Shown here in pieces: positions 3,487 to 62,179 of a stretch of DNA of 64,000 bases. The notes below the pieces were generated by a model. The model did no database searches. It saw only the letters and a list, made by a program, of their open reading frames with translations, and was not told the origin of the DNA. Source of the DNA: an uncultured Nitrospiraceae bacterium. GTDB taxonomy: Bacteria > Nitrospirota > Thermodesulfovibrionia > Thermodesulfovibrionales > Dissulfurispiraceae. Location: the NCBI GenBank assembly GCA_963727805.1, contig CAVSHF010000003.1, positions 384,001 to 448,000 on the forward strand, given 5' to 3'. The first letter of the stretch is position 1. The number at the start of each line of letters is the position of its first letter. A program made the translations under genes and the position numbers.

Positions 3487-3534
3487 ATTTAATAATTCCT
3501 CCTATGATCGTTCAATTTCAATATGTCTAACATA

Positions 3535-5460: not shown

Positions 5461-5470
5461 TATCCGGGCC

Positions 5471-5773: not shown

Positions 5774-5782
5774 TATACGCTC

Positions 5783-6295: not shown

Positions 6296-6953
6296 TCTCC
6301 TTGCTCTGAGTTATTTCTGCTGGTTTCTCTTCCGGCTTCTGCACTGCCGGTTTATGTTCTTCAGGTTTTTTCTCTTCCGGTGCCGCAGGTACTGCCCTAA
6401 GAGGGATCGGTGCTTGTTCCCTTTTTGCCTTCGGCATCTTGGAGATATCTACACCTTCTGGTCTCCAGAATTTGTTCCAGTATTCATCGGCATCAAGTTT
6501 CGCGACAAAATCATCCCAGTTCTTGAGCATTTTTTCTTTGTTAAAGTAAATATCATCCTTGGATGTTGAGACGTACGCATAATCTTCGGTCAGCGTGAGG
6601 GCGCATACGGGACAGACCTCGACACAATATCCGCAATAGATACACCTGAGTGCTTCGATGTCGTACTGTTCAAGGAATGGCTTGTTGTTCGCATCCCGGC
6701 CCTTCTTGATGTAAATGCATTGCGATGGACATATGTTCGAGCATTTCATGCACATTATGCATTTCTCTTTGCCGGTCTTGGGATTTCTCACAAAGGCATG
6801 TTTTCCTCTGAACCCAGGGTAAATCTTTCTTTTTTCTTCAGGGTACTGTATCGTGACAGGTTTGGAGAACATCATCTTCAGGGTGAGTGTCATCCCCTTT
6901 ATAGTGTCTATGAACAATGCTCGCCTGATGATGTCCTTCGCTGTCACAGTCAC
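6288..6953 (-). CDS. nuoI: NADH-quinone oxidoreductase subunit I (copy 1)
   Basis: TIQYPEE, FRGKH, two CxxCxxCxxxCP motifs; extra K/E/P-rich C-terminal tail. Confidence 0.93.
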   Translation of the reverse strand: MTVTAKDIIRRALFIDTIKGMTLTLKMMFSKPVTIQYPEEKRKIYPGFRGKHAFVRNPKTGKEKCIMCMKCSNICPSQCIYIKKGRDANNKPFLEQYDIEALRCIYCGYCVEVCPVCALTLTEDYAYVSTSKDDIYFNKEKMLKNWDDFVAKLDADEYWNKFWRPEGVDISKMPKAKREQAPIPLRAVPAAPEEKKPEEHKPAVQKPEEKPAEITQSKENA

Positions 6954-6959
6954 ATCCCC

Positions 6960-8006
6960 TTAACTGATATATTTGACGATTGCGGTTATTACTATGTTCA
7001 CGAGGGAAAGGGGGATTAGCACTTTCCATCCCAGGCTCATGAGGTGGTCATACCTGAAGCGCGGCACTGTAGCTCTTACCCAATAGTAAAGAAATAGATG
7101 ACAGTAGACTTTAAGAAGGAACCATACGACCCCCGGAACAAAAGAGAGGAAGGGGAACGTTGTCATTATTATCGGAGGAAGTGTCCAGCCGCCCCAGAAG
7201 CAGGTTACGGCGATACAGGACATGACGATCATAGCCGTGTATTCCCCCATGAAGAAAAGGGCGAATCGCATTCCGCTGTACTCGACGAAATAGCCCGCGA
7301 CGAGCTCGCTTTCGGCCTCGGGAAGATCGAAGGGGGTCCTGTTCGTTTCTGCGAAGGCACAAATCATAAAGATGATATACGCGAAAAATTGAGGAATGAT
7401 ATACATGCCGTACCAGTGCTTCTGCTGGGCCTCAACAATCTCTACAAGATTGAGCGTTCCTGAAAGGATCATTATCCCGACCAGGCTCAGGGCAAGCGCG
7501 ATTTCGTAGCTGACGACTTGGGCTGCGGACCGAAGACCGCCGAGGAACGCATATTTTGAATTCGACGACCAGCCCGACATGATGATTCCATAAGCGCCCA
7601 GCGATGACATGGCGAAGAGGTAAAGCAGGCCAACATTAATGTTGGCGATAATGAACCAGTTGCAAAAAGGGATCACGGCGAGAGCGCTGACAGCTGCGAA
7701 GATGGAAATCATTGGAGCGAGCTGAAAGACTACCTTGTCTCCGCTGCTCGGTATGATGTCCTCTTTAAAGAAGAGTTTGACCCCGTCGGCAATGGGCTGG
7801 AGAAGGCCATGGAATCCCGTTTTCATCGGGCCCAGGCGCACCTGCATATGACCGATGATCTTTCTTTCCCACCATGTGGAATAGGCAACGTGGAGCATTG
7901 CCGCGGAGAAAACGACGACAATTTGTACGAGCGTGAAAACTATCTGCACGTAGATATTCGTCTTTTGTATCCCCAGAAACCCGTAAAAGGAACTAATAAT
8001 ATCCAT
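6960..8006 (-). CDS. nuoH: NADH-quinone oxidoreductase subunit H
   Basis: ERKIIGHMQVRLGP, QPIADGVKLFFKED and AETNRTPFDLPEAESELVAGY motifs. Confidence 0.97.
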   Translation of the reverse strand: MDIISSFYGFLGIQKTNIYVQIVFTLVQIVVVFSAAMLHVAYSTWWERKIIGHMQVRLGPMKTGFHGLLQPIADGVKLFFKEDIIPSSGDKVVFQLAPMISIFAAVSALAVIPFCNWFIIANINVGLLYLFAMSSLGAYGIIMSGWSSNSKYAFLGGLRSAAQVVSYEIALALSLVGIMILSGTLNLVEIVEAQQKHWYGMYIIPQFFAYIIFMICAFAETNRTPFDLPEAESELVAGYFVEYSGMRFALFFMGEYTAMIVMSCIAVTCFWGGWTLPPIIMTTFPFLSFVPGVVWFLLKVYCHLFLYYWVRATVPRFRYDHLMSLGWKVLIPLSLVNIVITAIVKYIS

Positions 8007-8021
8007 TATTCATCACCTGCT

Positions 8022-9206
8022 TTACCTGTCACACTCTCCGAGCACGATATCTATCGTCCCGATGTTCGCGATAACGTCTGCAACAAGCGAACCTTCACAC
8101 AATTTAGGCAGTACCGAAGCATGTACAAAGGATGGTGATCTGATCTTCATCCGGTAAGGTCGGCCCGATCCGTCGCCGACTATATAAAACCCGAGTTCGC
8201 CTTTCGGCACTTCAATTGCGGCGTACATCTCGTCAAAAGGTTCCTGCGGTTCCTGCTCTTCTACCTCGCCTGGAAGGAGTTCACCCATGGGATGTCCCGG
8301 TATGATGCGCGGTTTGCCTGCAAGCAAATCATACGCCGGAGCTTCAGGGGCTAGGACAAGTCCACCGGGCAGTTTGTCAAGGCACTGACGGATAATTTTG
8401 ACAGACTCTCTGAATTCGATCATCCGGCATCGGTATCTGTCATATACATCGCAGTTAGTGCCAACGGGGACATCAAACTCGACCTGATCATAAGCATCGT
8501 AAGGTGCAAATTTCCTTACATCATAAGGAACTCCTGAACCTCTGAGGGTAGGGCCAGTCAAGCCCCAGTTGATAGCGTCCTCAGCGGATATAACGCCTAC
8601 GCCCTTAGTCCTCTGGAGCCAGATCGGGTTCTGATCGATCAGGGTCTCATATTCAAGAATTCTTTTGGGAAAATCATCGATAAATTTGTAACAGCTGTCG
8701 ATAAATTCCTGATTGATATCACAACGCACGCCTCCGATCCTCGGATAGGTGACTGTCAATCGTGCCCCGCACGTCATCTCGTAAAGGTCGAGGATCCATT
8801 CCCTGTCTCTCATCCCATAGAGGAAAACTGTCATAGCGCCGATATCGAGGGCATGGGTCGCGATCCAGACAATATGGTTAGAGATCCTTGTCAGTTCTCC
8901 CATGATCGTCCTAATATATTTGGCCCTTTCAGGAATTTCTATACCGAGGAGCTTCTCTACCGCCACGCAAAAACCTATATTATTTGACATGCTGGAAACA
9001 TAATCGAGCCTGTCAGTGAGGGGAAGGGCCATCGGATAAGTCCTGTTTTCGGCGAGCTTTTCGGTCCCCCGGTGGAGGTAACCAACATGCGGCGTGCAGC
9101 GAACTACTGTCTCACCGTCAAGTTCGAGGACCAGGCGCAGGACGCCATGGGTAGCGGGATGCTGAGGTCCCATGTTTATAGAAAGTTCTTTCTTCTTTAA
9201 AACCAT
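8022..9206 (-). CDS. nuoD: NADH-quinone oxidoreductase subunit D (copy 1)
   Basis: [32 protein letters not shown] and C-terminal DIVLGECDR; no Ni-binding CxxC pairs. Confidence 0.96.
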
Positions 9207-9743
9207 TCAGCGCACCTCATAAATCTTGTTTCTTTGGGCAGTTTCGATGACCTCTTTGAAGCCATTCCACTCTTTTTCACCGAGGTCGCTCTTTATGGGG
9301 TAATCCTTCCGTAACGGATAGCCCTCCCAATCATCGGGCATGAGAACTCTTCGCAGATCGGGATGATTCTTAAAGGTGATTCCGAACATATCGTAGCACT
9401 CCCGCTCATGCCAGTTGGCGCCAGCCCATATCCCGACTACACTGTCGATCGAGCAATCACTCTCAGTAACGAAAGCTTTTATCCTAATTTGATGGTTGTG
9501 TTTGATTGAAAAAAGATTGTATACCACTTCGAATCGATGATCTTTTCTGCCGAGGTAATCGACTCCGCAGAGATCTGCAAGATAGTCGAAGGAAAGATCT
9601 GGGGAATCATGCAGATAGGACATTATCTCAAAGATACGTTCTTTTTTGACTAAAACAGAAAACTGATCACGGAAGGCTAAAATCTCTATAACTTCCGAGT
9701 GAAATTGTGACTTTACGATTTCAGCTATTTCCTGAGGTGACAT
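9207..9743 (-). CDS. nuoC: NADH-quinone oxidoreductase subunit C
   Basis: ANWHERECYDMFGITFKNHPDLRRVLMP...GYPLRKDYP motif. Confidence 0.96.
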   Translation of the reverse strand: MSPQEIAEIVKSQFHSEVIEILAFRDQFSVLVKKERIFEIMSYLHDSPDLSFDYLADLCGVDYLGRKDHRFEVVYNLFSIKHNHQIRIKAFVTESDCSIDSVVGIWAGANWHERECYDMFGITFKNHPDLRRVLMPDDWEGYPLRKDYPIKSDLGEKEWNGFKEVIETAQRNKIYEVR

Positions 9744-9744
9744 G

Positions 9745-10266
9745 TTATCTCCACCTGCTCCATTTGAAATGTTCTTTGCTTATCAATTCCTGCAGCTTGA
9801 TAAGGCCGTCGATAAGGGCTTCAGGTCTCGGCGGGCATCCGGGAATAAAGACGTCTACCGGCAATATAGTATCAACTCCCTGGACTGTACTATAAGTATT
9901 GTAAATCCCACCACTGCATGCACAGCTTCCCATCGCGATCACATATCGCGGCTCGGGCATCTGATCATAAACCATTCTGACTACAGGGGCCATCTTTTTT
10001 GTCAATGTACCGGCTATAATTATGGCATCGGACTGTCTCGGCGAGCCTCTGAAAACAACTCCGAAACGGTCAAGATCATAATGTGAAGCCCCGGTTGCCA
10101 TCATCTCGATAGCGCAGCAAGCAAGGCCGAAGGTCATAGGCCATATAGACGATTTGCGTCCCCAGTTCACGAGTTTATCCACGGAGGCAATAATGGTATT
10201 GGCGCCGGGGATTACCTTAATCCCTTCCTCTACTTCAATAAGGGTAGTAGTGCCGTCAATGATCAT
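9745..10266 (-). CDS. nuoB: NADH-quinone oxidoreductase subunit B
   Basis: [22 protein letters not shown] and IPGCPPRPE motifs (cluster N2 ligands). Confidence 0.97.
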
Positions 10267-10281
10267 TGCAATACCTCTTAA

Positions 10282-10659
10282 TTACCATTGGAATGCCTCC
10301 TTCTTCCACGCATAGACGTATCCTACCAGAAGGATAACCATGAAAAGCATCATTTCGATCAATGCATAAAGACCGATTTTGTCGAACACCAAGGCCCATG
10401 GATAAAGAAACACAGCTTCAACGTCGAATACTACAAAGAGCATTGCGATAATATAGAATTTTATGCTGAAACGTTCCCTGGGTTCCCCAACAGGTGGGTT
10501 GCCTGATTCGTAGATCTGAAGTTTTTCCTTGTAAGGTCGCCTGAGGCGCATGATACTTCCGACAAGGATAACTCCGCCGGAGAAAATAATAGAGAAAAGC
10601 ATGATGAGCAGTACAGGAAGATATTCTGTCGGTATGTACGATCCGGGCATAACCATCAT
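10282..10659 (-). CDS. nuoA: NADH-quinone oxidoreductase subunit A
   Basis: YESGN and FYIIAMLFVVFDVEAVFLYPWA motifs; first gene of operon. Confidence 0.96.
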   Translation of the reverse strand: MMVMPGSYIPTEYLPVLLIMLFSIIFSGGVILVGSIMRLRRPYKEKLQIYESGNPPVGEPRERFSIKFYIIAMLFVVFDVEAVFLYPWALVFDKIGLYALIEMMLFMVILLVGYVYAWKKEAFQW

Positions 10660-32607: not shown

Positions 32608-35600
32608 TTGAAAAAGAACTTGATGATAGTGCTGGTCTGTATAACGCTGATGGCAGCGAGCAGCGCAGACTCTGCCACAAATCCCGGTTCGATAGGACAT
32701 GCCGCGTTTCCAGGGGCGCCGGCTCCCGTTGGAGAAGTGCTTTACGGCGACTGGAACGGTGACGGAACTATAAAGGTCGGTATTTTCTCCAATGGCAACT
32801 GGTATCTTGACTACCCGGGAACGGGAGTATGGGTGGGTTGCGGAACAACGGCGACGACCGACCGGTGTTATGAGGGCACCTTCGGTGCGGCCGGAGACAT
32901 CCCTGTAGTCGGTGACTGGAATGGAGATGGCAGGACCAAGATCGGGATTTTTCGCAATGGCAATTGGTATCTTGACTACCCGGGAACGGGAGTATGGGTG
33001 GGTTGCGGAACAACGGCGACGACCGACCGGTGTTATGAGGGCACCTTCGGTGCGGCCGGAGACATCCCTGTAGTCGGTGACTGGACCGGAGATGGAATTA
33101 CTAAGATAGGCGTCTACCGGGATTCAGCCAAGGCGTGGTACCTCGATATGAACGGCGATGGTATTTGGGATAATGCCGATAGAGGAGTAGCTGGATCCTT
33201 CACCTTTAACAGCCTGTATGCACAGAGAGGAGCGCAGGGCGTGAAGGGCGATACCGGTGCTGCTGGTCCGGCTGGTGCTCAGGGTATTCAGGGTCTTACT
33301 GGTCTCACCGGCCCTGCTGGTGCTGACGGAGCAGTCGGCGCTGCTGGTCCAGCTGGTGCTCAGGGTATTCAGGGTCTTACTGGTCTCACCGGCCCTGCTG
33401 GCGCTGACGGAGCAGTCGGTGCTGCTGGTCCAGCTGGTGCTCAGGGCGACACAGGCGATACCGGTGCCCCCGGTCTTGTTTGGAAAGGCACATGGGATGT
33501 TGCCGCCACTTATTTAACCGGTCAAGCTGTTGTTTATAACAGTGCCAGCTATATAAGTCTGGCTGATGCCAATATTGCCAATGTTCCTGACGCAGCAGCT
33601 TCTCTATTCTGGCAGATGCTTGCAGCGCAGGGCGTGAAGGGCGATACCGGTGCTGCTGGTCCGGCTGGTGCTCAGGGTATTCAGGGTCTTACTGGTCTCA
33701 CCGGCCCTGCTGGTGCTGACGGAGCAGTCGGCGCTGCTGGTCCGGCTGGTGCTCAGGGTATTCAGGGTCTTACTGGTCTCACCGGCCCTGCTGGCGCTGA
33801 CGGAGCAGTCGGTGCTGCTGGTCCAGCTGGTGCTCAGGGCGACACAGGCGATACCGGCGCACCCGGTCTTGTTTGGAAAGGCACATGGGATGTTGCCGCC
33901 ACTTATATAACCGGTCAAGCTGTTGTTTATAACAGTGCCAGCTATATAAGTCTGGCTGATGCCAATATTGCCAATGTTCCTGACGCAGCAGCTTCTCTAT
34001 TCTGGCAGATGCTTACAGCGCAGGGCGTGAAGGGCGATACCGGTGCTGCTGGTCCGGCTGGTGCTCAGGGTATTCAGGGTCTTACTGGTCTCACCGGCCC
34101 TGCTGGTGCTGACGGAGCAGTCGGCGCTGCTGGTCCGGCTGGTGCTCAGGGTATTCAGGGTCTTACTGGTCTCACCGGCCCTGCTGGCGCTGACGGAGCA
34201 GTCGGTGCTGCTGGTCCAGCTGGTGCTCAGGGCGACACAGGCGATACCGGCGCACCCGGTCTTGTTTGGAAAGGCACATGGGATGTTGCCACCACTTATA
34301 TAACCGGTCAAGCTGTTGTTTATAACAGTGCCAGCTATATAAGTCTGGCTGATGCCAATATTGCCAATGTTCCTGACGCAGCAGCTTCTCTATTCTGGCA
34401 GATGCTTGCAGCGCAGGGCGTGAAGGGCGATACCGGTGCTGCTGGTCCGGCTGGTGCTCAGGGTATTCAGGGTCTTACTGGTCTCACCGGCCCTGCTGGT
34501 GCTGACGGAGCAGTCGGCGCTGCTGGTCCGGCTGGTGCTCAGGGTATTCAGGGTCTTACTGGTCTCACCGGCCCTGCTGGTGCTGACGGAGCAGTCGGTG
34601 CTGCTGGTCCAGCTGGTGCTCAGGGCGACACAGGCGATACCGGCGCACCCGGTCTTGTTTGGAAAGGCACATGGGATGTTGCCACCACTTATATAACCGG
34701 TCAAGCTGTTGTTTATAACAGTGCCAGCTATATAAGTCTGGCTGATGCCAATATTGCCAATGTTCCTGACGCAGCAGCTTCTCTATTCTGGCAGATGCTT
34801 GCAGCGCAGGGCGTGAAGGGCGATACCGGTGCTGCTGGTCCGGCTGGTGCTCAGGGTATTCAGGGTCTTACTGGTCTCACCGGCCCTGCTGGTGCTGACG
34901 GAGCAGTCGGCGCTGCTGGTCCAGCTGGTGCTCAGGGTATTCAGGGTCTTACTGGTCTCACCGGCCCTGCTGGCGCTGACGGAGCAGTCGGTGCTGCTGG
35001 TCCAGCTGGTGCTCAGGGCGACACAGGCGATACCGGCGCACCCGGTCTTGTTTGGAAAGGCACATGGGATGTTGCCGCCACTTATTTAACCGGTCAAGCT
35101 GTTGTTTATAACAGTGCCAGCTATATAAGTCTGGCTGATGCCAATATTGCCAATGTTCCTGACGCAGCAGCTTCTCTATTCTGGCAGATGCTTGCAGCGC
35201 AGGGCGTGAAGGGCGATACCGGTGCTGCTGGTCCGGCTGGTGCTCAGGGTATTCAGGGTCTTACTGGTCTCACCGGCCCTGCTGGTGCTGACGGAGCAGT
35301 CGGCGCTGCTGGTCCGGCTGGTGCTCAGGGTATTCAGGGTCTTACTGGTCTCACCGGCCCTGCTGGCGCTGACGGAGCAGTCGGTGCTGCTGGTCCAGCT
35401 GGTGCTCAGGGCGACACAGGCGATACCGGCGCACCCGGTCTTGTTTGGAAAGGCACATGGGATGTTGCCACCACTTATATAACCGGTCAAGCTGTTGTTT
35501 ATAACAGTGCCAGCTATATAAGTCTGGCTGATGCCAATATTGCCAATGTTCCTGACGCAGCAGCTTCTCTATTCTGGCAGATGCTTGCAGCGCAGGGCGT

Positions 35601-36879
35601 GAAGGGCGATACCGGTGCTGCTGGTCCGGCTGGTGCTCAGGGTATTCAGGGTCTTACTGGTCTCACCGGTCCTGCTGGTGCTGACGGAGCAGTCGGCGCT
35701 GCTGGTCCGGCTGGTGCTCAGGGTATTCAGGGTCTTACTGGTCTCACCGGCCCTGCTGGCGCTGACGGAGCAGTCGGTGCTGCTGGTCCAGCTGGTGCTC
35801 AGGGCGACACAGGCGATACCGGCGCACCCGGTCTTGTTTGGAAAGGCACATGGGATGTTGCCACCACTTATATAACCGGTCAAGCTGTTGTTTATAACAG
35901 TGCCAGCTATATAAGTCTGGCTGATGCCAATATTGCCAATGTTCCTGACGCAGCAGCTTCTCTATTCTGGCAGATGCTTGCAGCGCAGGGCGTGAAGGGC
36001 GATACCGGTGCTGCTGGTCCAGCTGGTGCTCAGGGTATTCAGGGTCTTACTGGTCTCACCGGCCCTGCTGGTGCTGACGGAGCAGTCGGCGCTGCTGGTC
36101 CAGCTGGTGCTCAGGGTATTCAGGGTCTTACTGGTCTCACCGGCCCTGCTGGCGCTGACGGAGCAGTCGGTGCTGCTGGTCCAGCTGGTGCTCAGGGCGA
36201 CACAGGCGATACCGGTGCACCCGGTCTTGTTTGGAAAGGCACATGGGATGTTGCCGCCACTTATATAACCGGTCAAGCTGTTGTTTATAACAGTGCCAGC
36301 TATATAAGTCTGGCTGATGCCAATATTGCCAATGTTCCTGACGCAGCAGCTTCTCTATTCTGGCAGATGCTTGCAGCGCAGGGCGTGAAGGGCGATACCG
36401 GTGCTGCTGGTCCGGCTGGTGCTCAGGGTATTCAGGGTCTTACTGGTCTCACCGGCCCTGCTGGTGCTGACGGAGCAGTCGGCGCTGCTGGTCCGGCTGG
36501 TGCTCAGGGCGACACAGGCGATACCGGTCTTCAGGGCATTCCCGGTGTTTCCAACATTGTGACATTGACTGAGAATGTCAATATGCCGGCCGATACAGCA
36601 GATATTGGCAGGGTGTTCAAGAAAGCCGTAGGCATAACCATCACAGGGGTTTCTTGCATAGCGCTAGGCGCCGGTGCAGTCATTGACGTAGATGTGCAGA
36701 AGTGTGATGCTAATTTTGTGACCTGCAACACCATTTTATCGGCCCCTATTCACTGCTCGAACGCGCACAATACAGGGACTGTCGCATTTGGGACCATAAC
36801 AAGCAGTCAGTACGTTAGTATAGTTACTAGCGGCAGATCTAATCTTGTTTTATTGGATGTCAACATGGACTATCAATAA
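32608..36879 (+). CDS. Large secreted collagen-like repeat protein (FG-GAP-like N-terminal repeats; 8x [collagen + CBM5/12-like] units; Cys-containing C-terminal domain)
   Basis: AAGGAG RBS and TTG start; signal peptide; GDWNGDG repeats; runs of 26 Gly-X-Y triplets alternating with 52-aa WKGTW...Y...GQAVVY...W modules. Confidence 0.88.
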   Translation: MKKNLMIVLVCITLMAASSADSATNPGSIGHAAFPGAPAPVGEVLYGDWNGDGTIKVGIFSNGNWYLDYPGTGVWVGCGTTATTDRCYEGTFGAAGDIPVVGDWNGDGRTKIGIFRNGNWYLDYPGTGVWVGCGTTATTDRCYEGTFGAAGDIPVVGDWTGDGITKIGVYRDSAKAWYLDMNGDGIWDNADRGVAGSFTFNSLYAQRGAQGVKGDTGAAGPAGAQGIQGLTGLTGPAGADGAVGAAGPAGAQGIQGLTGLTGPAGADGAVGAAGPAGAQGDTGDTGAPGLVWKGTWDVAATYLTGQAVVYNSASYISLADANIANVPDAAASLFWQMLAAQGVKGDTGAAGPAGAQGIQGLTGLTGPAGADGAVGAAGPAGAQGIQGLTGLTGPAGADGAVGAAGPAGAQGDTGDTGAPGLVWKGTWDVAATYITGQAVVYNSASYISLADANIANVPDAAASLFWQMLTAQGVKGDTGAAGPAGAQGIQGLTGLTGPAGADGAVGAAGPAGAQGIQGLTGLTGPAGADGAVGAAGPAGAQGDTGDTGAPGLVWKGTWDVATTYITGQAVVYNSASYISLADANIANVPDAAASLFWQMLAAQGVKGDTGAAGPAGAQGIQGLTGLTGPAGADGAVGAAGPAGAQGIQGLTGLTGPAGADGAVGAAGPAGAQGDTGDTGAPGLVWKGTWDVATTYITGQAVVYNSASYISLADANIANVPDAAASLFWQMLAAQGVKGDTGAAGPAGAQGIQGLTGLTGPAGADGAVGAAGPAGAQGIQGLTGLTGPAGADGAVGAAGPAGAQGDTGDTGAPGLVWKGTWDVAATYLTGQAVVYNSASYISLADANIANVPDAAASLFWQMLAAQGVKGDTGAAGPAGAQGIQGLTGLTGPAGADGAVGAAGPAGAQGIQGLTGLTGPAGADGAVGAAGPAGAQGDTGDTGAPGLVWKGTWDVATTYITGQAVVYNSASYISLADANIANVPDAAASLFWQMLAAQGVKGDTGAAGPAGAQGIQGLTGLTGPAGADGAVGAAGPAGAQGIQGLTGLTGPAGADGAVGAAGPAGAQGDTGDTGAPGLVWKGTWDVATTYITGQAVVYNSASYISLADANIANVPDAAASLFWQMLAAQGVKGDTGAAGPAGAQGIQGLTGLTGPAGADGAVGAAGPAGAQGIQGLTGLTGPAGADGAVGAAGPAGAQGDTGDTGAPGLVWKGTWDVAATYITGQAVVYNSASYISLADANIANVPDAAASLFWQMLAAQGVKGDTGAAGPAGAQGIQGLTGLTGPAGADGAVGAAGPAGAQGDTGDTGLQGIPGVSNIVTLTENVNMPADTADIGRVFKKAVGITITGVSCIALGAGAVIDVDVQKCDANFVTCNTILSAPIHCSNAHNTGTVAFGTITSSQYVSIVTSGRSNLVLLDVNMDYQ
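32791..33084 (+). repeat. 165-bp-period tandem duplication encoding 55-aa FG-GAP-like repeat
   Basis: Near-identical copies start at 32791 and 32956 (NGNWYLDYPGTGVWVGCGTTATTDRCYEGTFGAAGDIPVVGDW). Confidence 0.9.
33232..36528 (+). repeat. 393-bp tandem repeat, 8 full copies plus a truncated ninth, each with an internal 81-bp duplication
   Basis: GCGCAGGGCGTGAAGGGCGATACC recurs at 33232, 33625, 34018, 34411, 34804, 35197, 35590, 35983 and 36376. Confidence 0.95.
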
Positions 36880-53187: not shown

Positions 53188-53625
53188 TCACAAATCAATA
53201 GAATCTTCAAGGTCTTTGATCATAATCTCCTGTTCTGATATAACTTCCTTAACCACGTCGCCGATCGTTATGATACCCTTAATTTGTTTGTCGTCAAAAA
53301 CAGGCAAGTGACGAATGTGTTTTGATGTCATTAACGCCATGCATTCATCAAGGGTATTTTCCGGTTTAACGTAGAATACGTCTCGAGTCATCAGTTCGCT
53401 GACATTTGTATCCTTGGAAGATTTTCCCTTGAGGATCACCTTTCTTGCATAATCACGTTCCGAAAATACTCCAACAAGTTTTTCATTCTCAAAGACTAAT
53501 ACAGCTCCGATATTCTTCTCAGCCATCACTTCGAGAGCTTCATATGCCGTCGTCGTGGGAGATACTGACCAGATTTCACTACCTCGGCCTTTTAATATAT
53601 CTTTGACAGTTTTCACGGATGCCAT
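53188..53625 (-). CDS. CBS-domain pair protein
   Basis: GAVLV...VGVFSERDYARKV...LMT...IRHLPV...GIITIGDVVK. Confidence 0.9.
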   Translation of the reverse strand: MASVKTVKDILKGRGSEIWSVSPTTTAYEALEVMAEKNIGAVLVFENEKLVGVFSERDYARKVILKGKSSKDTNVSELMTRDVFYVKPENTLDECMALMTSKHIRHLPVFDDKQIKGIITIGDVVKEVISEQEIMIKDLEDSIDL

Positions 53626-54271: not shown

Positions 54272-54433
54272 ATGGGTACTTCCTCAAAAATGTTTCTTAA
54301 TGCAACAGACGGCGGAGCTGGTCTCTTCTCCTGCCATAATCAATTCATATTCGTCTTTTCGACTCGCTTTCATCGACTGAAACGTGGCCCAACAGTATTA
54401 AGCAGTATGAATAAGACTTATTGGTATGCGTAA
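54272..54433 (+). CDS. Small upstream ORF (53 aa) translationally coupled to nuoD2
   Basis: AGGAGG (54261-54266) 5 nt before ATG 54272; TAA overlaps the nuoD2 ATG (TAATG). Confidence 0.45.
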
Positions 54434-55632
54434 TGTCATCCGGGGAATCTGTCACCAATAGCAAGAGAGATCTCGTCATAAACATGGGACCGCAGCACCC
54501 GGCTACCCATGGTGTGCTCAGGCTTATCCTGGACCTCGAAGGAGAGATGGTCTTAAAATGCACACCCTGTATCGGTTACCTGCATCGCGGTACCGAGAAA
54601 CTGGCAGAGAACCTAACCTATCTCTCGGCCTTGCCTCTCATGGACAGACTCGACTACCTCGCAAGCATTCTGACCACTCAGGGATACTGCCTTGCCGTGG
54701 AGCGTCTCCTGGGGTTCGAACCACCCGTGAGGGCCAAGTATATCAGGACCATGGTCGCCGAAATGGCCCGGATATCGAGCCACCTGCTCTGGTTGGCAAC
54801 CCATGCCCTCGACATTGGTGCAATGACCGTCTTCTTTTACACCTTCAGAGAGCGGGAGCGGATTCTCGACCTGTTCGAGATCCTCAGCGGGGCACGGCTG
54901 ACGACAAGCTATCCTAGAATCGGTGGGGTGAAAAGCGATGTTTCGCAGGAATTCCTTGACAGCCTTTACTCATTCACAGAGGATTTCCCCGGGAAGATCG
55001 TGGAGTATGAGACACTTATCGACCAGAACCCGATTTGGCTTAAAAGAACCAAGGGTGTGGGCGTCATCTCTGCCGAGGAGGCGATCAACTGGGGATTAAG
55101 CGGACCCATTTTGCGGGCTTCCGGGGTGCCCTATGACGTAAGGAAGTTCTCCCCGTACGATGCCTATGATCAGGTCGACTTCGATGTGCCCGTCGGCAGC
55201 AACTGTGATGTGTACGACAGGTACCGATGCAGGATGCTCGAAATGAGACAATCAAACCGGATAATCGCTCAATGTATAGAAAAACTTCCTGTCGGACCCA
55301 TATTGACGCCGGATATGCCTAAATACATCCTGCCGCCGAAGGATGATATCCTGACAAGCATGGAGGCTATGGTTCATCATTTCGTGCTTGTCACCAAGGG
55401 GCCTATCAGTGCGGCAGCAGGTGAGATATACTCAGCGGTTGAGGCCCCCAAGGGAGAATTGGGATTTTTCCTTGTCAGCGATGGCACCGGGAAACCTTAC
55501 CGGATGAGGATACGCGCACCGTCTTTTGTTCATGCATCGATCTTGCCGAAATTGTGCGAAGGCGGCCTTCTCGCCGATGTCATCGCGAACATCGGGAGTG
55601 TTGATATTGTACTGGGGGAATGTGACCGGTAA
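54433..55632 (+). CDS. nuoD: NADH-quinone oxidoreductase subunit D (copy 2)
   Basis: [30 protein letters not shown] and DIVLGECDR motifs; ATG 54433 (TTG 54421 alternative). Confidence 0.94.
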
Positions 55633-55679
55633 TAGTGTTATTAACGCAAAGCCTGACCATTTGATTGGGTGACTGAGAA

Positions 55680-56225
55680 ATGACATTCCGCAAGCTGGCA
55701 AGGACTATCTTACATCTGGACTTTCTTAAAGCGATGTCGCTTACCTTCATGAGTTTGTTCAGTAAGCCGATCACCAGACAATATCCTTCAGAGAAGAGAC
55801 CGGTAGCATCAGGGTTCCGGGGTCTCCACGCCCTCACCCGGGACTTTGTCACAGGCGAAGCTAGATGTGTGGGCTGCGGGCTCTGTTCCGCCATTTGTCC
55901 ATCGCAGTGCATTCACATTTACACTAGTGAGGGACCGGATAACAAGAAAATAGTAGAGCGCTATGAGATAGAAGTCCTGAGGTGTGTCTATTGCTGCTTG
56001 TGCGTGGAGGCATGTCCTTATACTGCTATAGCACTGACGGAGCATTATGAATACGTAGCTTTCAGCCGGCAGGCACTCTACATGACGAAAGACCGCCTGC
56101 TGGACAATTATGACTCATACATGGGGCGTGAGAAGGATGAGCACTATTTCAGGCTTTTCTGGCATCCGCGCAGGACGGACTTTATAACTCCTCTGGACCA
56201 GGCAGTATTTCGAAGGCGCCCGTAG
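55680..56225 (+). CDS. nuoI: NADH-quinone oxidoreductase subunit I (copy 2)
   Basis: TRQYPSE, FRGLH, CVGCGLCSAICP and CVYCCLCVEACP motifs. Confidence 0.92.
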   Translation: MTFRKLARTILHLDFLKAMSLTFMSLFSKPITRQYPSEKRPVASGFRGLHALTRDFVTGEARCVGCGLCSAICPSQCIHIYTSEGPDNKKIVERYEIEVLRCVYCCLCVEACPYTAIALTEHYEYVAFSRQALYMTKDRLLDNYDSYMGREKDEHYFRLFWHPRRTDFITPLDQAVFRRRP

Positions 56226-56321
56226 AGTGCTTTCACCATGAAGAGGGTGGTGCTCTCCCTTTACCGACATGGAAGCTAACAGTAGTGATACTGCATGTAA
56301 TCAGTTGCAAGGAGGTTCGCC

Positions 56322-56771
56322 GTGACAGGATATGTATCTACAGACATAATATTGGCTGCAATTGTCACACTTGTGGTCGCAGCGGTTGCCTCTGTTCTCA
56401 TAATTCGGGACTATGCCTTAAAGTATAGGCAGGCTGTAGAGCGGGGCAAAAAAATATCAAAAAAAACAACTGCAAAGCAAATGTTACCGATTGTAGGCAG
56501 CCATGTGAAGTTTCAGGATGAGACTGGTGTGGATTGTGATGCCGTTGTCATTGCCATTCACAATCCTAAAATGTTCACTCTGGCTGTTACAGGTAGTGAC
56601 AATACGGACAGAACCCAATATTTCAGGGACATTGAAAAAGATGCTTTCACAGCACACGGCAACATGCACCCGCTATACGGCTTCAACTATGGATATACTG
56701 AGGAGGGGCTGAGATCATATGGTGTCACCGAAGAATATAATGAACTGCTCCACTATAGTCACATCAATTGA
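56322..56771 (+). CDS. Hypothetical protein with single N-terminal TM helix
   Basis: AAGGAGG RBS before GTG; hydrophobic IILAAIVTLVVAAVASVLII followed by basic stretch. Confidence 0.65.
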   Translation: MTGYVSTDIILAAIVTLVVAAVASVLIIRDYALKYRQAVERGKKISKKTTAKQMLPIVGSHVKFQDETGVDCDAVVIAIHNPKMFTLAVTGSDNTDRTQYFRDIEKDAFTAHGNMHPLYGFNYGYTEEGLRSYGVTEEYNELLHYSHIN

Positions 56772-56843
56772 TTCTGAGAGTATAGGGCCTCCGCATCAGA
56801 GGGATACGGAAAAGGCAGGATCTGCTTTGCTGGAGCGAAAACA

Positions 56844-57704
56844 ATGAGTTCTAAAATCCTAGTGGTCGATGACAGGTTGATCGCACTGAGCGGGCTCAAA
56901 GGCGTGCTGGCGCCGGAAGGGTATACTGTGGATAGCTCCCATGCAAAGAGTGAGGCCGCAGTCATGCTGGAGGGGACACGGTATGACCTTGTCATCACAG
57001 ATCTTGATCCGGCCGCCAGAGAGAGCATCGAGTTTCTCAGACATTTGAGAAACACTTCGCCGGAAGCGCGTGTTGTTCTCATGGCGAAGTCGCCGTCGCG
57101 GGAGCAAATCAGAAAGGCGCTGGCACAGAAAATCGAGTTCTATCTCCCCTACAATTCTCCGCCATCCCTGATGCGCAAGACTATCAGCCGTGCCCTCCGG
57201 AAGGCGGTGGGAAGACATGTCGACATACCTCCCAAGGAGGAATGGGACCCGGAAATCCTGCGGAAGTTGGATGACATCATTGCGCGCAACAAGAAGAAAG
57301 CCGGCAGCCTGATCCCCGTGCTCCAGATGGCACAGGAGATAACCGGGTATCTGCCTCCGTCAATACTCAAGCATATCGCAAAGGGCATGCGAATACCGGA
57401 GAGCGAAATACACGGAGTGGTCTCTTTCTATTCGTTCTTCACCATGAAGCCCCGGGGCAGACACAATATCCGCGTCTGTCTTGGGACCGCATGCTATGTT
57501 AAGGCCGCTGAGGAGATCATCAGAAACCTGAGCGAAGGGCTGCAGGTAGAGGTTGGGGGTATGACCGCGGACAAGAAGTTCTCGCTGGAGACCGTGCGAT
57601 GCCTCGGCGCCTGCGGGCTCGCACCCGTAGTTGTGGTGGACAAAGATACTCATGGGTTCATAAACCCCGTCAAGGCACTGGACATAGTGAAGGATTATGA
57701 ATAA
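56844..57704 (+). CDS. nuoE: Receiver (REC)-like domain fused to NuoE/HydC-type [2Fe-2S] subunit
   Basis: N-terminal KILVVDD...YDLVITD receiver fold; C-terminal LIPVLQMAQEITGYLP, VSFYSFF, CLGTAC and CLGAC motifs. Confidence 0.88.
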   Translation: MSSKILVVDDRLIALSGLKGVLAPEGYTVDSSHAKSEAAVMLEGTRYDLVITDLDPAARESIEFLRHLRNTSPEARVVLMAKSPSREQIRKALAQKIEFYLPYNSPPSLMRKTISRALRKAVGRHVDIPPKEEWDPEILRKLDDIIARNKKKAGSLIPVLQMAQEITGYLPPSILKHIAKGMRIPESEIHGVVSFYSFFTMKPRGRHNIRVCLGTACYVKAAEEIIRNLSEGLQVEVGGMTADKKFSLETVRCLGACGLAPVVVVDKDTHGFINPVKALDIVKDYE

Positions 57705-57773
57705 TGCTGCGGTGGGGAGACCATTGGGTCCCGCCTTTGGCACTCGGTTTCGTACGAATTAAAGGAGGTTGTA

Positions 57774-59717
57774 ATGTCCCGTCTTACCCTCGATAGTTTC
57801 AAAAGTCTGGCGGAATCATTGCGCAGGGAACGGCTCGAGGGCGGTGCTCAACACTATCGCGCGAGCATCATGCTCTGCGGCGGGACCGGATGTATTGCCG
57901 GGGGCAGCGTCAAGATCAGGGACACCTTCAATGCTGAACTCAAGAACAAAGGCCTTGCGAACGACATCAACGTCGTTCTTACCGGATGCAATGGTTTTTG
58001 CGCTCAGGGGCCGGTGCTCACCATCCAGCCCGACGATACTTTTTACGAGAAAGTTACCGTGGGAGATGTTCCGACCATTGTGGAAGAACACTTTATAAAC
58101 AATAATCCTGTGGCACGCCTTATGTACAAAGACCCTATCAGCAAACAGTCCATTCCGCGTGCGCAGGATATCCCTTTCTTCAGCCACCAGATCCTCAGGG
58201 CTCTTAGAAACAAAGGCCTCATAGACCCCGAAAAAATAGAGGACTACATAGCGAGGGATGGCTACCTGGCAGCCGCCAAGGCCCTCTTTGAAATGACCCC
58301 TGATGAGATAATTGCAGAGATCAAACGCTCGGGGTTGCGCGGTCGGGGTGGCGCCGGCTTCCCAACAGGGCTTAAGTGGGAAGAAGCAGCACGAGTAAAA
58401 GCCGGCCTGAAATATATCCTCTGTAATGGAGACGAAGGGGATCCTGGCGCGTTTATGGACAGGAGCATTATGGAGGGTGACCCACATGTTGTCCTTGAAG
58501 GCATGATCATCGGGGCCAGGGCAATCGGTTCTCACAAGGGGTACATCTATGTTAGGGCCGAATATCCTCTTGCGGTAAACCATCTGCAGGTCGCTCTTGA
58601 TCAGGCGAATGAGTACGGACTCCTGGGTACCGACATCCTGGGGTCGGGCTTCGACCTCGATATAGAAATTTACCAGGGTGCGGGAGCCTTCGTCTGTGGG
58701 GAGTCAACGGCCCTGATGACATCCATCGAAGGCAAACGCGGCATGCCCCGAACAAAGCCGCCCCAGTCTGTCGAACAAGGGCTCTTCGGCAAGCCCTCCG
58801 TGCTTAATAACGTCGAAACATTCGCCAACGTGCCGCTTATCGTACTTCATGGTGCCGAGTGGTTCAGGAGCCTCGGATCCGAAAAGTCGACGGGCACAAA
58901 GGTATTTGCCCTGAGTGGGGCAGTGAACAACATCGGACTCATAGAAGTCCCGATGGGGACCCCACTCAGGCAAATTATATTCGATATCGGCGGCGGCATT
59001 CCAAAGCGCAGAAAGTTCAAGGCCGTGCAGCTTGGCGGTCCTTCAGGCGGCTGTATCCCGGAGCAACTTCTCGACACCCCAGTTACGTTCGAAGACATTG
59101 TAAAAACAGGCGCCATTATGGGCTCCGGTGGCATGGTAGTGATGGACGACCTCAATTGCATGGTAAGCGTCGCCAAGTTTTTTCTTGAGTTCACTGCAGA
59201 CGAGTCCTGCGGCAAATGTACCCCTTGCAGGATCGGAACGACGGTGCTTTATGAGCTGCTCACAGAGATCACCGAGGGAAGAGGCAAAGAAGGCGACATC
59301 GAACTTATCGATGACCTTTCAAAGGACATCATTGCTTCTTCGCTGTGTGGTCTCGGTCAGAGCGCGCCCAATCCGGTACTGACCACCATTCAGTATTTCA
59401 GAGACGAATTCGACGCGCATATCAGACAAAAGTGGTGTCCCACCGGCGTATGCAAGGAACTCTGCACTTTCTATATTACCCGTGAGACGTGTACGGGCTG
59501 TGGCGCCTGTTCGAGGGTCTGCCCCAAAAAGGCGATTTCAGGAGAAAAAAAGAAGCCGCATCATATCGCGCAGGAACTTTGTATCCAATGCCGTTCCTGT
59601 TATTTGGCATGCCGTTTCAATTCCATAAAAATTGGCCCACGTAGTATGAGGGATGAATTGGCGGCGCAGGGCATTCCTGAAGAGATAGCCGGCGCGACTG
59701 CCGCCGGGAAGGAGTGA
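57774..59717 (+). CDS. nuoF: NuoF/HydB-like flavoprotein with N-terminal [2Fe-2S] and C-terminal 2x[4Fe-4S] domains
   Basis: CGGTGC...GCNGFC, RGRGGAGFPTG, DEGDPGAFMDR, CGESTAL, GGPSGG, ESCGKCTPCR and two ferredoxin motifs. Confidence 0.92.
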   Translation: MSRLTLDSFKSLAESLRRERLEGGAQHYRASIMLCGGTGCIAGGSVKIRDTFNAELKNKGLANDINVVLTGCNGFCAQGPVLTIQPDDTFYEKVTVGDVPTIVEEHFINNNPVARLMYKDPISKQSIPRAQDIPFFSHQILRALRNKGLIDPEKIEDYIARDGYLAAAKALFEMTPDEIIAEIKRSGLRGRGGAGFPTGLKWEEAARVKAGLKYILCNGDEGDPGAFMDRSIMEGDPHVVLEGMIIGARAIGSHKGYIYVRAEYPLAVNHLQVALDQANEYGLLGTDILGSGFDLDIEIYQGAGAFVCGESTALMTSIEGKRGMPRTKPPQSVEQGLFGKPSVLNNVETFANVPLIVLHGAEWFRSLGSEKSTGTKVFALSGAVNNIGLIEVPMGTPLRQIIFDIGGGIPKRRKFKAVQLGGPSGGCIPEQLLDTPVTFEDIVKTGAIMGSGGMVVMDDLNCMVSVAKFFLEFTADESCGKCTPCRIGTTVLYELLTEITEGRGKEGDIELIDDLSKDIIASSLCGLGQSAPNPVLTTIQYFRDEFDAHIRQKWCPTGVCKELCTFYITRETCTGCGACSRVCPKKAISGEKKKPHHIAQELCIQCRSCYLACRFNSIKIGPRSMRDELAAQGIPEEIAGATAAGKE

Positions 59718-62179
59718 ATGCCATGTTAGAACTCACCATAGACAACCAAAAAGTTGGGGTAGAGCCGGGGACAACCATTCTTGAAGCTGCCCTGCGGCAT
59801 GGCATCTATATTCCGAATCTCTGCTACGATCCTAGATTGAAACCCTACGGCGGATGCAGGTTGTGCCTTGTCGAAGTGCAGGGGCAGAGGAAGCTTATCG
59901 CGTCCTGTGCGACACCAGTCAAAGCGGAAATGGTCGTGCTTACCAACACACCGAAGATCGCCAAGGTCAGAAAAACGCTCCTCGAATTGCTGCTGCTCCA
60001 TCATCCCCTTGATTGTCCTGTCTGTGACAAGGCAGGCGAATGCAAACTGCAGGACCTTGTCTTTCTGTATGGCGCGTCTCAAAGCAGATTTTCTGCCGTA
60101 CGAAGACAGGAGACTGGGCTGATTGATTCCCCTCTTATTGCCCGGACAATGAGCCGGTGCATTCTTTGCGGCAAGTGTGTAAAGCTGTGCCATGATCATC
60201 AGGGTGCCCGGGCGGTGAACTTCATCGGCCGGGGATTCAAAACAAAGGTGAGCCCTGCCTTCGAGGAGACACTTGATTGCGATTTCTGCGGACAGTGCAT
60301 CGACGCCTGCCCGGTGGGGGCCCTTGGCAGCGGCGCGTATCGATCTCGGTCACGGAGTTGGTACGAAGAAGAGCACGCAACAATTTGTCCCTATTGCGGG
60401 TGCGGCTGTACGACTCACCTATTCATCAGAGAGGGAAGGATCATGCGCGCGCGGGGCAAACCGGGCACCGGAATCAACGATGGAGACCTTTGCGCCAAGG
60501 GCAGGTTCGGCTTTGATTTTATCTATGGTGAGACTAGGCTCACTACGCCACTTATCAAGAAAGACGGGAAGCATACGCCAGCAAGTTGGGAAGAAGCCCT
60601 CACCTACATAGCGAAAAAGCTCGACACCATTACCCAGGAGCACGGCCCTTCGGCAATCGGGGCACTGGGTTCACCGCGCTGCACTATGGAAGACAACTAC
60701 ATGCTTCAGCGTTTCATGCGCCAGGTAATCGGCAGTGACAATATCGATTCAATCGCCCGGTTTGGTCATGCTACTGTACAGATGGCCATAAATCAAATCC
60801 TCGGCGTTAGATTCCATCCCATTATTTGGGACGCGCCCCAGAAGGCCGATCTCATACTCGTACTGGAATCAGACATCACTTCGATGCTTCCGGTTTGGGG
60901 ACTCAATTTCATCAGGGCAAAGAACCATGAGGCGACACTCATCGTAGCCGATGCGCTCGACACCAAGCTGGCGAAGAACAGTTCACAGTGGTTGCAAATA
61001 CGCCCCGGTTCCGGCGAGTATCTTCTCAAGGGCATGATGAAGATATTGATCGACGAACGGGAACCGCTGCGGCGGCAGGCTGCGGAACTGCCGAATTTTG
61101 ACACCTTCATCGATAGCATCGAAAAGTTTACTCCTTCGTTCGTCTCCTCACTGACCGGATTGACCGAACAGGAAATAACGGACCTGGCGAGAGTCTATGC
61201 CGACTCAGAAAGGCGGCTGCTGGCCCTAACCCTGGGACCGTCAGAAAACAAGAAGGGTCTTAACACCCTTCGTTCTGCGGCAAACCTTGTCCTGCTTATG
61301 GGGGACGACCCTGCCACCCTGCAGATACCGGCTGAACTATGCAACACTCTTGGAATGTGGGCCATGGGAATACATCCACTCGCAGACGGTAAGGATGCTT
61401 ACGATATGCTGTACAAGGGTAGACTTGAGGCCCTTTACATTATGGGAGAAAATCCCCTTGTAACCTTCAAGAATTCTGAATTGGTGGAACTTAATCTGAG
61501 GGGCCTCGAGATGCTTGTTGTCCAGGACATCAATTACACGGATACGGCGCGACTTGGCGATGTCATTTTGCCCGCATGCAGCTGGGGTGAGAAGGATGGG
61601 ACATTTATGAATGCCACAGGACATGTTCAGGAAATGCGGCGCTTACTGCCCCAAACAGGACGTTCTCTTCCCGATTGGCAGATTTTCAGGGACCTCGCAC
61701 GGGTTATGAACAATGATCTGTCCAGCATCGAACTAGAGCAGATCAAGGAAGATGTCGGCAGGCTTGTTACGGAATTCAGACAATCAGCGGTGAATTCTCC
61801 GGCTCTTTATCCGGTCCGTGACCGTCCGCGAGAGGTCCCCGACGAGGACTATCCGCTGATTCTCGTGACTTCCGATCTGCCGCAGCATTCCGGCACACTG
61901 TCGGTGGAGTCGAGAAACCTCGGAAGCGCTCACTCCGATGCATATTTAAGAATCAATCCCGCCGATGCGGTGAAATATAACGTGTCTGATGACGATTTTG
62001 TGCGTCTGAGCTCGAGAAGGGGAGAGGTATACGTCAAAGCAAGAATCACATCTGACGTCATGGAAGGAATGGTTTTCGCCCCCATCCATTTCCCCCATGT
62101 AAGGATAAACAGTGTAACTCATGTGGCCATGTATGGCGAGGCGCCGTTGGATGCGGTGAGGGTCGATCCTCTTGACTAG
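59714..62179 (+). CDS. nuoG: NuoG/FdhA-like multi-Fe-S subunit with molybdopterin-oxidoreductase fold, lacking the Mo-ligating Cys/Sec
   Basis: [2Fe-2S] motif, HPLDCPVCDKAGEC, CILCGKC, CDFCGQCIDACP, CPYCGCGC; ARFGH at the FDH AR-x-C/U-H position; start may be ATG 59723. Confidence 0.8.
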   Translation: MNAMLELTIDNQKVGVEPGTTILEAALRHGIYIPNLCYDPRLKPYGGCRLCLVEVQGQRKLIASCATPVKAEMVVLTNTPKIAKVRKTLLELLLLHHPLDCPVCDKAGECKLQDLVFLYGASQSRFSAVRRQETGLIDSPLIARTMSRCILCGKCVKLCHDHQGARAVNFIGRGFKTKVSPAFEETLDCDFCGQCIDACPVGALGSGAYRSRSRSWYEEEHATICPYCGCGCTTHLFIREGRIMRARGKPGTGINDGDLCAKGRFGFDFIYGETRLTTPLIKKDGKHTPASWEEALTYIAKKLDTITQEHGPSAIGALGSPRCTMEDNYMLQRFMRQVIGSDNIDSIARFGHATVQMAINQILGVRFHPIIWDAPQKADLILVLESDITSMLPVWGLNFIRAKNHEATLIVADALDTKLAKNSSQWLQIRPGSGEYLLKGMMKILIDEREPLRRQAAELPNFDTFIDSIEKFTPSFVSSLTGLTEQEITDLARVYADSERRLLALTLGPSENKKGLNTLRSAANLVLLMGDDPATLQIPAELCNTLGMWAMGIHPLADGKDAYDMLYKGRLEALYIMGENPLVTFKNSELVELNLRGLEMLVVQDINYTDTARLGDVILPACSWGEKDGTFMNATGHVQEMRRLLPQTGRSLPDWQIFRDLARVMNNDLSSIELEQIKEDVGRLVTEFRQSAVNSPALYPVRDRPREVPDEDYPLILVTSDLPQHSGTLSVESRNLGSAHSDAYLRINPADAVKYNVSDDDFVRLSSRRGEVYVKARITSDVMEGMVFAPIHFPHVRINSVTHVAMYGEAPLDAVRVDPLD

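Follow-up and report, generated by a model that had tools for sequence, protein, structure and literature searches.

The stretch of DNA considered here (the window, 64,000 nucleotides; contig CAVSHF010000003.1, positions 384,001 to 448,000) comes from an uncultured Nitrospiraceae bacterium of the order Thermodesulfovibrionales (GCA_963727805.1), whose genome (G000) is 100% complete in 5 contigs; other G labels below denote relatives, and L labels denote loci. The element in question is a six-ORF cassette on the + strand (window 54433-62179), encoding second copies of the complex I subunits NuoD and NuoI (NuoD2, NuoI2), a small protein X, a fusion of a receiver domain to NuoE (REC:NuoE), NuoF and NuoG, with intergenic gaps of 47, 96, 72, 69 and -4 nt in that order. 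The initial annotation of this DNA had placed these six genes here in this order, and all six ORFs were found, with the D, I, REC+E, F and G families confirmed by Pfam and NCBIfam. It had also described an 11-subunit main complex I operon without NuoEFG, which is likewise seen at the other end of the window, 44 kb from the cassette. The features needed for the argument are as follows.

54433-55632, + strand: NuoD2, a second quinone-site subunit with the ancestral C-terminal segment kept (TIGR01962, 557.9 bits, above the cut-off).
55306-55419, + strand: head-tracking segment of NuoD2 (about residues 292-329, core motif 310-317), which aligns with the solved mitochondrial NDUFS2.
55680-56225, + strand: NuoI2, a 2x[4Fe-4S] connector of the type found in operons that contain E, F and G (TIGR01971, above the cut-off).
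56322-56771, + strand: orf X, 149 amino acids, with a hydrophobic N-terminal stretch and a small soluble domain.
56844-57704, + strand: REC:NuoE (BfuC), PF00072 plus PF01257, with the [2Fe-2S] C1 domain intact and the receiver degenerate.
57774-59717, + strand: NuoF of the BfuB/HydB type, with an FMN/NADH site, motifs B1-B5 and the AFM, Phe and GGPSG signatures.
59714-62179, + strand: NuoG/BfuA, with a formate-dehydrogenase-like fold, an intact Fe-S chain and no Mo-ligand Cys or Sec.
470-10659, - strand: 11-gene nuo operon A-B-C-D1-H-I1-J-K-L-M-N, lacking E, F and G; B, free C, H and the pumping arm presumably come from here.
8022-9206, - strand: NuoD1, in which the segment (about 8232-8357) is replaced by a Pro/Glu-rich loop.
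6288-6953, - strand: NuoI1, of the type common to Mo-enzyme-linked operons, with a C-terminal extension.

NuoD2 retains the N-terminal His loop, the DRxDY Tyr motif and the C-terminal GECDR, and it is 75% identical to congeners although third positions are nearly saturated (0.43-0.46). Taken together, D2, I2, E, F and G share 63-83% amino acid identity with congeners at a third-position identity of 0.40-0.46 and, on this sequence comparison, are under purifying selection. The closest NuoG matches in named genomes are mostly from Thermodesulfovibrionales or Nitrospirota. Scans for promoters (15 matches, 10.8 +/- 3.5 expected) and terminators (11 matches, 7.9 +/- 2.9 expected) gave numbers not above chance, and a scan for regulator boxes upstream found only matches with two mismatches that are not common to the genomes. 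Seven wetland metatranscriptome assemblies contain 5-9% of the cassette words; in the four of the seven that were aligned, D2, I2, E, F and G are matched by short pieces, of which some are 95-99% alike and none extends across the cassette, and such contigs cannot show transcription.

Apart from the head, the only complex I subunits encoded in the cassette are the connectors D and I. As the initial annotation had stated, only D and I are extra: a genome-wide count finds no additional B, free C or H of the same family, the own-family ratio D:I:B:C:H being 2:2:1:1:1 in this genome as in G003, G005, G008 and G014, and 3:3:2:2:1 in G010. The idea that a headless complex I is the state of the organism as a whole has to be given up, since the genome also encodes a complete 14-gene operon (C3:1262297-1276710) with a fused NuoCD, its own E, F, G and I, and a full membrane arm. 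Two formate dehydrogenases, one further cluster of EF type and a cluster resembling a group 4 hydrogenase are encoded as well. The genome thus does contain a second complete arm, whose absence had been proposed as a check, yet this arm needs no outside subunits, and identity to its type is only 43% for D2 and 37% for I2. Because its C is fused to its D, NuoD2 cannot use this C, and the only free NuoC in the genome is that of the 11-gene operon. For A, B, C, H, L and M, that operon has median identities of 64-77% to 19-21 intact 14-gene operons of relatives, whose D is D2-like (71%) and whose I is I2-like (median 57.5%, compared with 45% for I1). By this measure, D2 and I2 are the ancestral-type partners of the lineage to which the 11-gene arm belongs, and since 14 genes are the usual state of that lineage, the 11-gene form seen here is likely derived.

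The two NuoD are 66% identical and the two NuoI 43% identical. The initial annotation had pointed to long identical stretches shared by the two NuoD and to one sharply divergent C-terminal segment. The segment is real, lying around residues 285-330 (30% identity to D2 in D1 bin 275-325, against 69-79% elsewhere), whereas the identical stretches reflect ordinary protein conservation. Because third-codon identity outside the segment is 42-51% and the longest identical DNA run is 16 nt, D1 and D2 are old paralogues rather than a recent copy, and recent gene conversion between them in this genome was rejected on the same figures.

The identity of this segment follows the neighbouring electron-input head. 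Among Thermodesulfovibrionales relatives, the segment motif is present in 37 of 38 NuoD encoded adjacent to E, F and G (25/26, 10/10 and 2/2), and it is found in 0/15 NuoD (0/5 and 0/10) encoded beside a PhsA-like molybdoenzyme or its ferredoxin; NuoI sequence types match the same segment and head classes. In G054, identity between the two NuoD is 94-98% outside the segment and falls to 32% within it, the motif-bearing D of G009 and the Mo-linked D of G046 are 88-95% identical outside and 38% inside, and in a tree with the segment cut out the motif-less D do not form one clade, 8 changes being needed; thus the segment changes with the head on different backbones. In the segment-free tree, the four D2 (G000, G003, G005, G010) form a single clade with a support of 96. 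A full-length NuoD tree (a quick rather than careful search, with one partial D excluded) joined D1 with the Mo-linked D, and this grouping was gone once the segment was removed. The motif presumably forms a helix facing or touching NuoG, and the comparative signal is independent of this assumption. An AlphaFold model of D2 alone, with a mean pLDDT of 55 and values below 50 for residues 293-399, neither shows nor excludes such a helix. In complex I, NuoEFG contacts NuoI, NuoCD and NuoB (PMC8357420), and NuoG is contacted by NuoC's C-terminal loop (PMC3144371); the accessible text of PMC8165549 and PMC7021789 does not address the segment.

Other NuoD loci show further variation around the same position. 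In the 11-gene operon L078 (G035:C25), NuoD carries a 2x[4Fe-4S] domain resembling the C-terminus of NuoF, inserted exactly at the head-tracking segment, which is possibly a built-in ferredoxin dock. G054 contains near-identical NuoD paralogues (L206, L224) that share a 100-nt identical run, and contigs of G052 (L240) and G058 (L241) end inside nuoD, a pattern suggesting that nuoD was recently duplicated or gene-converted around a variable segment that was kept.

The head encoded by the cassette is not the plain NAD(P)H-oxidizing one that had been proposed; its motifs are of the BfuABC type (NADH plus ferredoxin), and it does not derive from the NuoEFG of the lineage itself. NuoF2 (PF01512, PF10589, PF10531, Fer4) combines the FMN/NADH domain and B1 cluster with a C-terminal 2x[4Fe-4S] domain (B3, B4), and, following the BfuB motif definitions available from Schut et al. 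2022 (PMC9304861) and Feng et al. 2022 (PMC8880783), it also contains the B2 ligands Cys, Thr, His, Cys, Cys and the N-terminal cysteines of the B5 [2Fe-2S] cluster; the B2 and B5 sites are absent or incomplete in the NuoF of relatives' 14-gene operons. The AFM, Phe and GGPSG signatures are all present in NuoF2 and in 19 of 22 orthologues, and the in-operon NuoF of the lineage is short and has TFK and Tyr in place of these signatures. The C1 [2Fe-2S] domain of BfuC (PF01257) occupies residues 143-285 of REC:NuoE. NuoG2 (PF10588) has a His-ligated N5-type (A3) cluster and no catalytic centre. The Mo-ligand position is Gly in NuoG2 and in all 22 orthologues shown, the His that follows being kept in NuoG2 and replaced by Tyr in 21 of the 22, and the two formate dehydrogenases of the genome have an in-frame TGA at this position. 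The N5-region motif of NuoG2 is that of in-operon NuoG and not that of formate dehydrogenases. Assignment of NuoG2 as a formate dehydrogenase (FdsGBA or Fdh-Bfu) was rejected because Gly stands in place of the Mo/W ligand Cys or Sec.

The E, F and G of the cassette share median identities of 31.5, 46 and 33% with the in-operon E, F and G of the lineage, and these values, together with their separate clades and the long NuoF with B2-B5, led to rejection of a relocated ancestral NuoEFG. In a FastTree phylogeny of 105 NuoF, the stand-alone clade that includes NuoF2 (support 99) is sister (support 100) to five in-operon Nuo-Bfu NuoF and three others, the in-operon members coming from Nitrospirota and deltaproteobacteria. 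Nuo-Bfu is a predicted 14-subunit complex I with BfuABC as its input module (BfuB clades 38 and 39, the latter including Nitrospirae), which is predicted to couple the joint oxidation of NADH and reduced ferredoxin to menaquinone reduction and proton pumping (Schut et al. 2022, PMC9304861), the only paper in our literature search in which the term was met. By the motifs of NuoF2 and the missing Mo ligand of NuoG2, the head appears to match the Nuo-Bfu class and is predicted to be of the electron-bifurcating type. NuoG2 orthologues (45-71% identity) were found in 25 of 40 relatives, with a stand-alone REC:E-(HydD)-F-G cluster in 20 of the 25 retrieved. Among 80 loci from named genomes, nuo operons contain close E-HydD-F-G sets at L148, L142, L192 and L193; at L125, L129, L134 and L137, and also in G025, such a set stands head-to-head with a nuo operon. 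Because of these sets and of the sister relationship to in-operon Nuo-Bfu NuoF, the module is best regarded as a complex I head.

The pairing of this head with its own D and I recurs in relatives. Conservation of the D-I-X-E-F-G order in relatives with an 11-gene operon, which the initial annotation had suggested examining, was found in two congeners: the cassette occurs beside a D1-type 11-gene operon in G003 (98% complete, 8% contamination, both loci on one contig) and in G005 (79% complete). In G010, D2-I2 lies about 6 kb from E-HydD-F-G. Extra D/I pairs without a matching extra arm were thus seen in four genomes with a Bfu head and, reciprocally, in three with a Mo head: G008, G014 and G074 have a mirror cassette consisting of Mo enzyme, ferredoxin, D and I, with no B, C or H at the locus, and their main operons carry a motif-bearing D. 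Each of the three has one own-family H (in G074, H alone was counted genome-wide). Across 78 genomes, counted without a test statistic, with fused-CD genes not scored as D and with kin that are not independent, an orthologue of NuoG2 is present in 47/53 genomes with a motif-bearing D, 2/20 with only motif-less D, and 2/5 in which no own-family D was found. The apparent exceptions G052 and G058 were resolved by motif-D fragments at contig ends, and in G017 the G gene is broken into pieces. Within the genus, cassette and head are both present in G000, G003 and G005, and both are missing from the D1-only genomes G002, G004, G006 and G007.

From these observations, we propose that NuoD2 and NuoI2 are built into the 11-gene arm in place of NuoD1 and NuoI1, giving the Bfu head its docking face, a reading to which we assign a probability of about 0.62. 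The adaptor swap on a single arm that had been put forward in the initial annotation would thus stand, on the strength of a D/I pair lacking its own B, C and H, its lineage fit to the 11-gene arm and the tracking of the head by the segment, while its plain NAD(P)H head would not. In the proposed complex, the 11-gene operon would provide NuoA, B, C, H and J-N as partners for NuoD2 and NuoI2; NADH would enter at the FMN and reduced ferredoxin via B4-B3-B2-C1, and electrons would pass along the Fe-S chain of NuoG to NuoI2, to cluster N2 on NuoB and to menaquinone at the D2/H site, with proton pumping. Run in reverse, proton-motive force and menaquinol would produce NADH and reduced ferredoxin, a reaction well suited to a cell that has the Wood-Ljungdahl pathway, metabolises sulfate and lacks Rnf. 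Since MqnC, CdhC and DsrA are present and a genome search gave no match for RnfD, either direction could be useful. As for its history, the head may have been an order-wide stand-alone module docking on ancestral-type D/I; the main arm in this genus would then have gained the altered D1 and I1, after which the head would have survived only with a compatible D/I pair of its own.

Selection between D1/I1 and D2/I2 would occur at assembly, through gene expression rather than phosphorylation of the REC domain. The REC domain of REC:NuoE keeps Asp9, Asp10 and Asp53 but has Ala81 for Thr and Tyr103 for Lys, as it does in G003 and G005, and the response regulator found upstream of stand-alone clusters is missing at this cassette. 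All 19 of the stand-alone REC:E orthologues listed are canonical, with Thr and Lys kept. Phosphorylation control may therefore operate in relatives and probably does not at this REC, so that the signalling control through the REC fusion that had been suggested is unlikely here.

Several points weigh against mounting the Bfu head on the 11-gene arm through D2 and I2 as proposed. The docking and the switching are predictions from comparative genomics; the bifurcation motifs predict and do not prove bifurcation, and the Nuo-Bfu class is itself a prediction. The cassette lacks the 127-aa HydD-like gene that is kept in 18 of 20 stand-alone clusters, and in full it was seen only in three genomes of one genus and near relatives. 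In the co-occurrence count, the 20 genomes whose D are all motif-less belong to just a few genera, and the co-occurring genomes are kin. Individual genomes also depart from the pattern: G036 has a 14-gene operon with E-F-G plus a Bfu head, yet a non-motif D; in G042 the head is present and the only D found lacks the motif, the main operon of this genome breaking across contigs exactly at D; G055 (98% complete, 160 contigs) has the head and no nuo genes found; six genomes with a motif-bearing D lack the head; and in G046 the Mo enzyme and ferredoxin are accompanied by D without I. Finally, G001 and G010 encode arm-less B-C-D-E-F-G-I sets, so that peripheral modules can carry their own B and C.

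These last sets, which lack H and antiporters, lend some credit to the strongest of the alternatives, in which the Bfu head joins D2 and I2 in a peripheral module without an arm that borrows B and C, is tethered by X, and delivers electrons to quinone or another acceptor without pumping. X has no Pfam or NCBIfam match (its best Atlas match, at 0.80, is without a name) and 5 homologues; its hydrophobic N-terminal stretch is likely one membrane helix, and the protein is a possible anchor or assembly factor. X lies directly 3' of an arm-less nuoI at every locus seen (4/4 in genomes, 6/6 in metagenomes), in keeping with such a tether. The six metagenome loci, found by a scan with X, are from near relatives and not independent lineages (L283 is 99% like G005 upstream); downstream they include REC:E at five, and D was reached at four. 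X is, however, only 30-35% identical to its congeners, is apparently split by a frameshift in L285, and is absent from the D2-I2 of G010 and from the Mo cassettes. NuoD quinone-site motifs work against NuoH, and those of D2 are kept, which argues against an arm-less existence. We regard this alternative as improbable, though less so than the others.

A somewhat weaker alternative, in our estimate, is that the Bfu module is a soluble enzyme with a third substrate or partner that is not known, D2 and I2 being mere neighbours with a separate role. The module does stand alone in most relatives, related F genes occur in clusters without nuo genes in view (L181, L187), and G055 points the same way. 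On the other hand, its G subunit lacks the catalytic ligand and has the N5-region motif of in-operon NuoG, the closest relatives of its NuoF are inside nuo operons, and the head tracks the NuoD motif (47/53 against 2/20 genomes).

It is very unlikely that D2, I2 and the head assemble on the arm of the fused-NuoCD 14-gene operon. A complete arm of this type does exist, and fused-CD genes are found in G003 and G005 too, but D2 could not be swapped in without a free C, and its identity to that type is low, as is that of I2. Because three of the four headless congeners (G002, G004, G007) keep the fused-CD operon, that arm does not retain the head, and in G014 and G074 the extra D/I coexist with just one H genome-wide. 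Equally remote, given the intact frames, complete cofactor motifs, strong conservation at saturated third positions, and the same gene order in G003, G005 and metagenome contigs, is the idea that the cassette is what is left of a once complete Nuo-Bfu operon now in decay; the degenerate REC, the missing HydD gene and the loss in four congeners might be cited for it.

For the electron input to D1 and I1, free ferredoxin, proposed in the initial annotation, and a Mo enzyme/ferredoxin cluster at C3:1309294 are both candidates. The Mo enzyme is 70-79% identical to Mo enzymes adjoining motif-less D/I, I1 has their NuoI type, and D1 grouped with their D in the full-length NuoD tree. Against it, that grouping was not kept in the segment-free tree, the D1 loop is unlike the Mo-type segment, G006, G020 and G051 have D1-type NuoD without the Mo enzyme, and clusters of Mo enzyme, ferredoxin, G' and GltD without D/I also occur in motif-D genomes. 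Mo enzyme/ferredoxin clusters (C3:1309294-1314636, L091; also L060, L067, L062, L064, L075, L222, L223, L228 and L231-L237) encode a PhsA-like molybdoenzyme, which starts directly at its Fe-S motif with no leader evident, and a DmsB-like ferredoxin, usually preceded by TauE-like genes. The two proteins are found beside D-I alone, as the input head in complex I operons that contain two NuoL-like genes, or next to a pair resembling NuoG-N/GltD. The Mo enzyme of the reciprocal cassette is most like thiosulfate reductase PhsA, although below the cut-off, and the clusters are candidates for a sulfur-compound-driven complex I.

The proposed complex shares with Nuo-Bfu the BfuB and BfuC core motifs, a catalytically dead BfuA with a His-ligated A3/N5 cluster, a menaquinone-making host and an affiliation with Nitrospirota. 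It differs in that Nuo-Bfu has BfuABC in the middle of a 14-gene operon, whereas the system described here would be a split variant, with a separate head that has its own D, I and REC-fused BfuC and an arm shared with a second D/I pair. Like canonical 14-subunit complex I (E. coli NuoA-N, Thermus Nqo1-14, the mitochondrial core), it has a D2 segment as in NDUFS2 and a predicted path from G through I and B to quinone, but its NuoF has four extra clusters and the bifurcation signatures, and the genes for B, C, H and the arm lie at a distance of 44 kb. Like 11-gene complex I, the main operon lacks the N-module; unlike it, the same genome encodes a candidate N-module with dedicated D/I adaptors. 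In Syntrophobacter fumaroxidans, one nuoEFG accompanies two copies of the rest (Spero et al. 2015, PMC4453560). Mixing and matching of head and arm is proposed there, as here, from gene counts, but the ratio is reversed, with one arm and two D/I pairs in the present case and the D segment matched to the head. A preprint on Manganitrophaceae (10.1101/2021.11.15.468770) covers, in its accessible parts, extra pumping subunits only.

The head of formate hydrogenlyase consists of FdhF-HycB on HycE/HycF, and the same set of parts recurs in the reciprocal cassette of the relatives (Mo enzyme, DmsB-like ferredoxin, D, I); the cassette differs in that its D is without NiFe ligands and its Mo enzyme is PhsA-like. 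Work by Chadwick and colleagues in 2018 (ISME J) is said to discuss EFG-less complex I in Nitrospirae and may anticipate part of the present proposal. No report of head-specific NuoD/NuoI adaptor cassettes was met in the literature searched, mostly at listing level, with that work as one that may bear on the matter. The class of head has thus already been predicted in print, and the D/I adaptor logic is what is new here.

Additional variations on complex I were observed in passing. Of 41 genomes, 13 gave NuoB matches flagged for an in-frame TGA, 16 matches in all; in the three NuoB whose TGA position was checked (e.g. L045 of G014, L035 of G019, L032 of G026), it lies at the first of two tandem N2-ligand cysteines, likely encoding a selenocysteine-ligated N2, and the NuoB of the present genome has Cys-Cys at this tandem. 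L278 (G013:C7) is a short, non-bifurcating-type E-F-G cluster apart from an 11-gene operon with a motif-bearing D. The clusters L053 (G001:C14) and L057 (G010:C26) have the order B-C-D-orf-E-F-G-I without membrane subunits, followed in G001 by an X homologue. Complex I operons at L168, L172, L173 and L180 (Nitrospinota, Bacteroidales and others) have a head composed of a GltD-like flavoprotein and NuoG, the G of L173 being split at an in-frame stop, like a selenocysteine formate dehydrogenase, and L191 and L198 of Nitrospina contain E-G-D with no arm in view. In the window itself, a CBS-pair protein (53188-53625, - strand) is divergent from the cassette, a similar CBS protein flanking D2-I2 in G010 (L097), and a 1423-aa protein (32608-36879, - strand) has long collagen-like Gly-X-Y repeats that alternate with a repeated globular unit.

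Isoforms of complex I are usually viewed as whole duplicated operons or as a fixed arm with one head. As a tentative generalization, offered with less assurance than the reading of the cassette itself, complex I in Thermodesulfovibrionales could behave as a plug and socket, in which one arm accepts alternative D/I adaptors, an NuoD segment of about 40 residues and the NuoI type pick the head (NuoEFG, BfuABC, a PhsA-like Mo enzyme plus ferredoxin, or none), and head-adaptor cassettes are gained and lost as units; the Bfu version described here would let menaquinol and proton-motive force make NADH and reduced ferredoxin at once, substituting for the missing Rnf. If D and I are indeed interchangeable adaptors, there would be a sequence-readable rule for how 11-subunit complexes are fed, with the NuoD segment and NuoI type predicting the head. 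The Nuo-Bfu prediction would gain a compact six-gene test object, and sulfur-cycling Nitrospirota without Rnf would gain a candidate route between menaquinone, NADH and ferredoxin.

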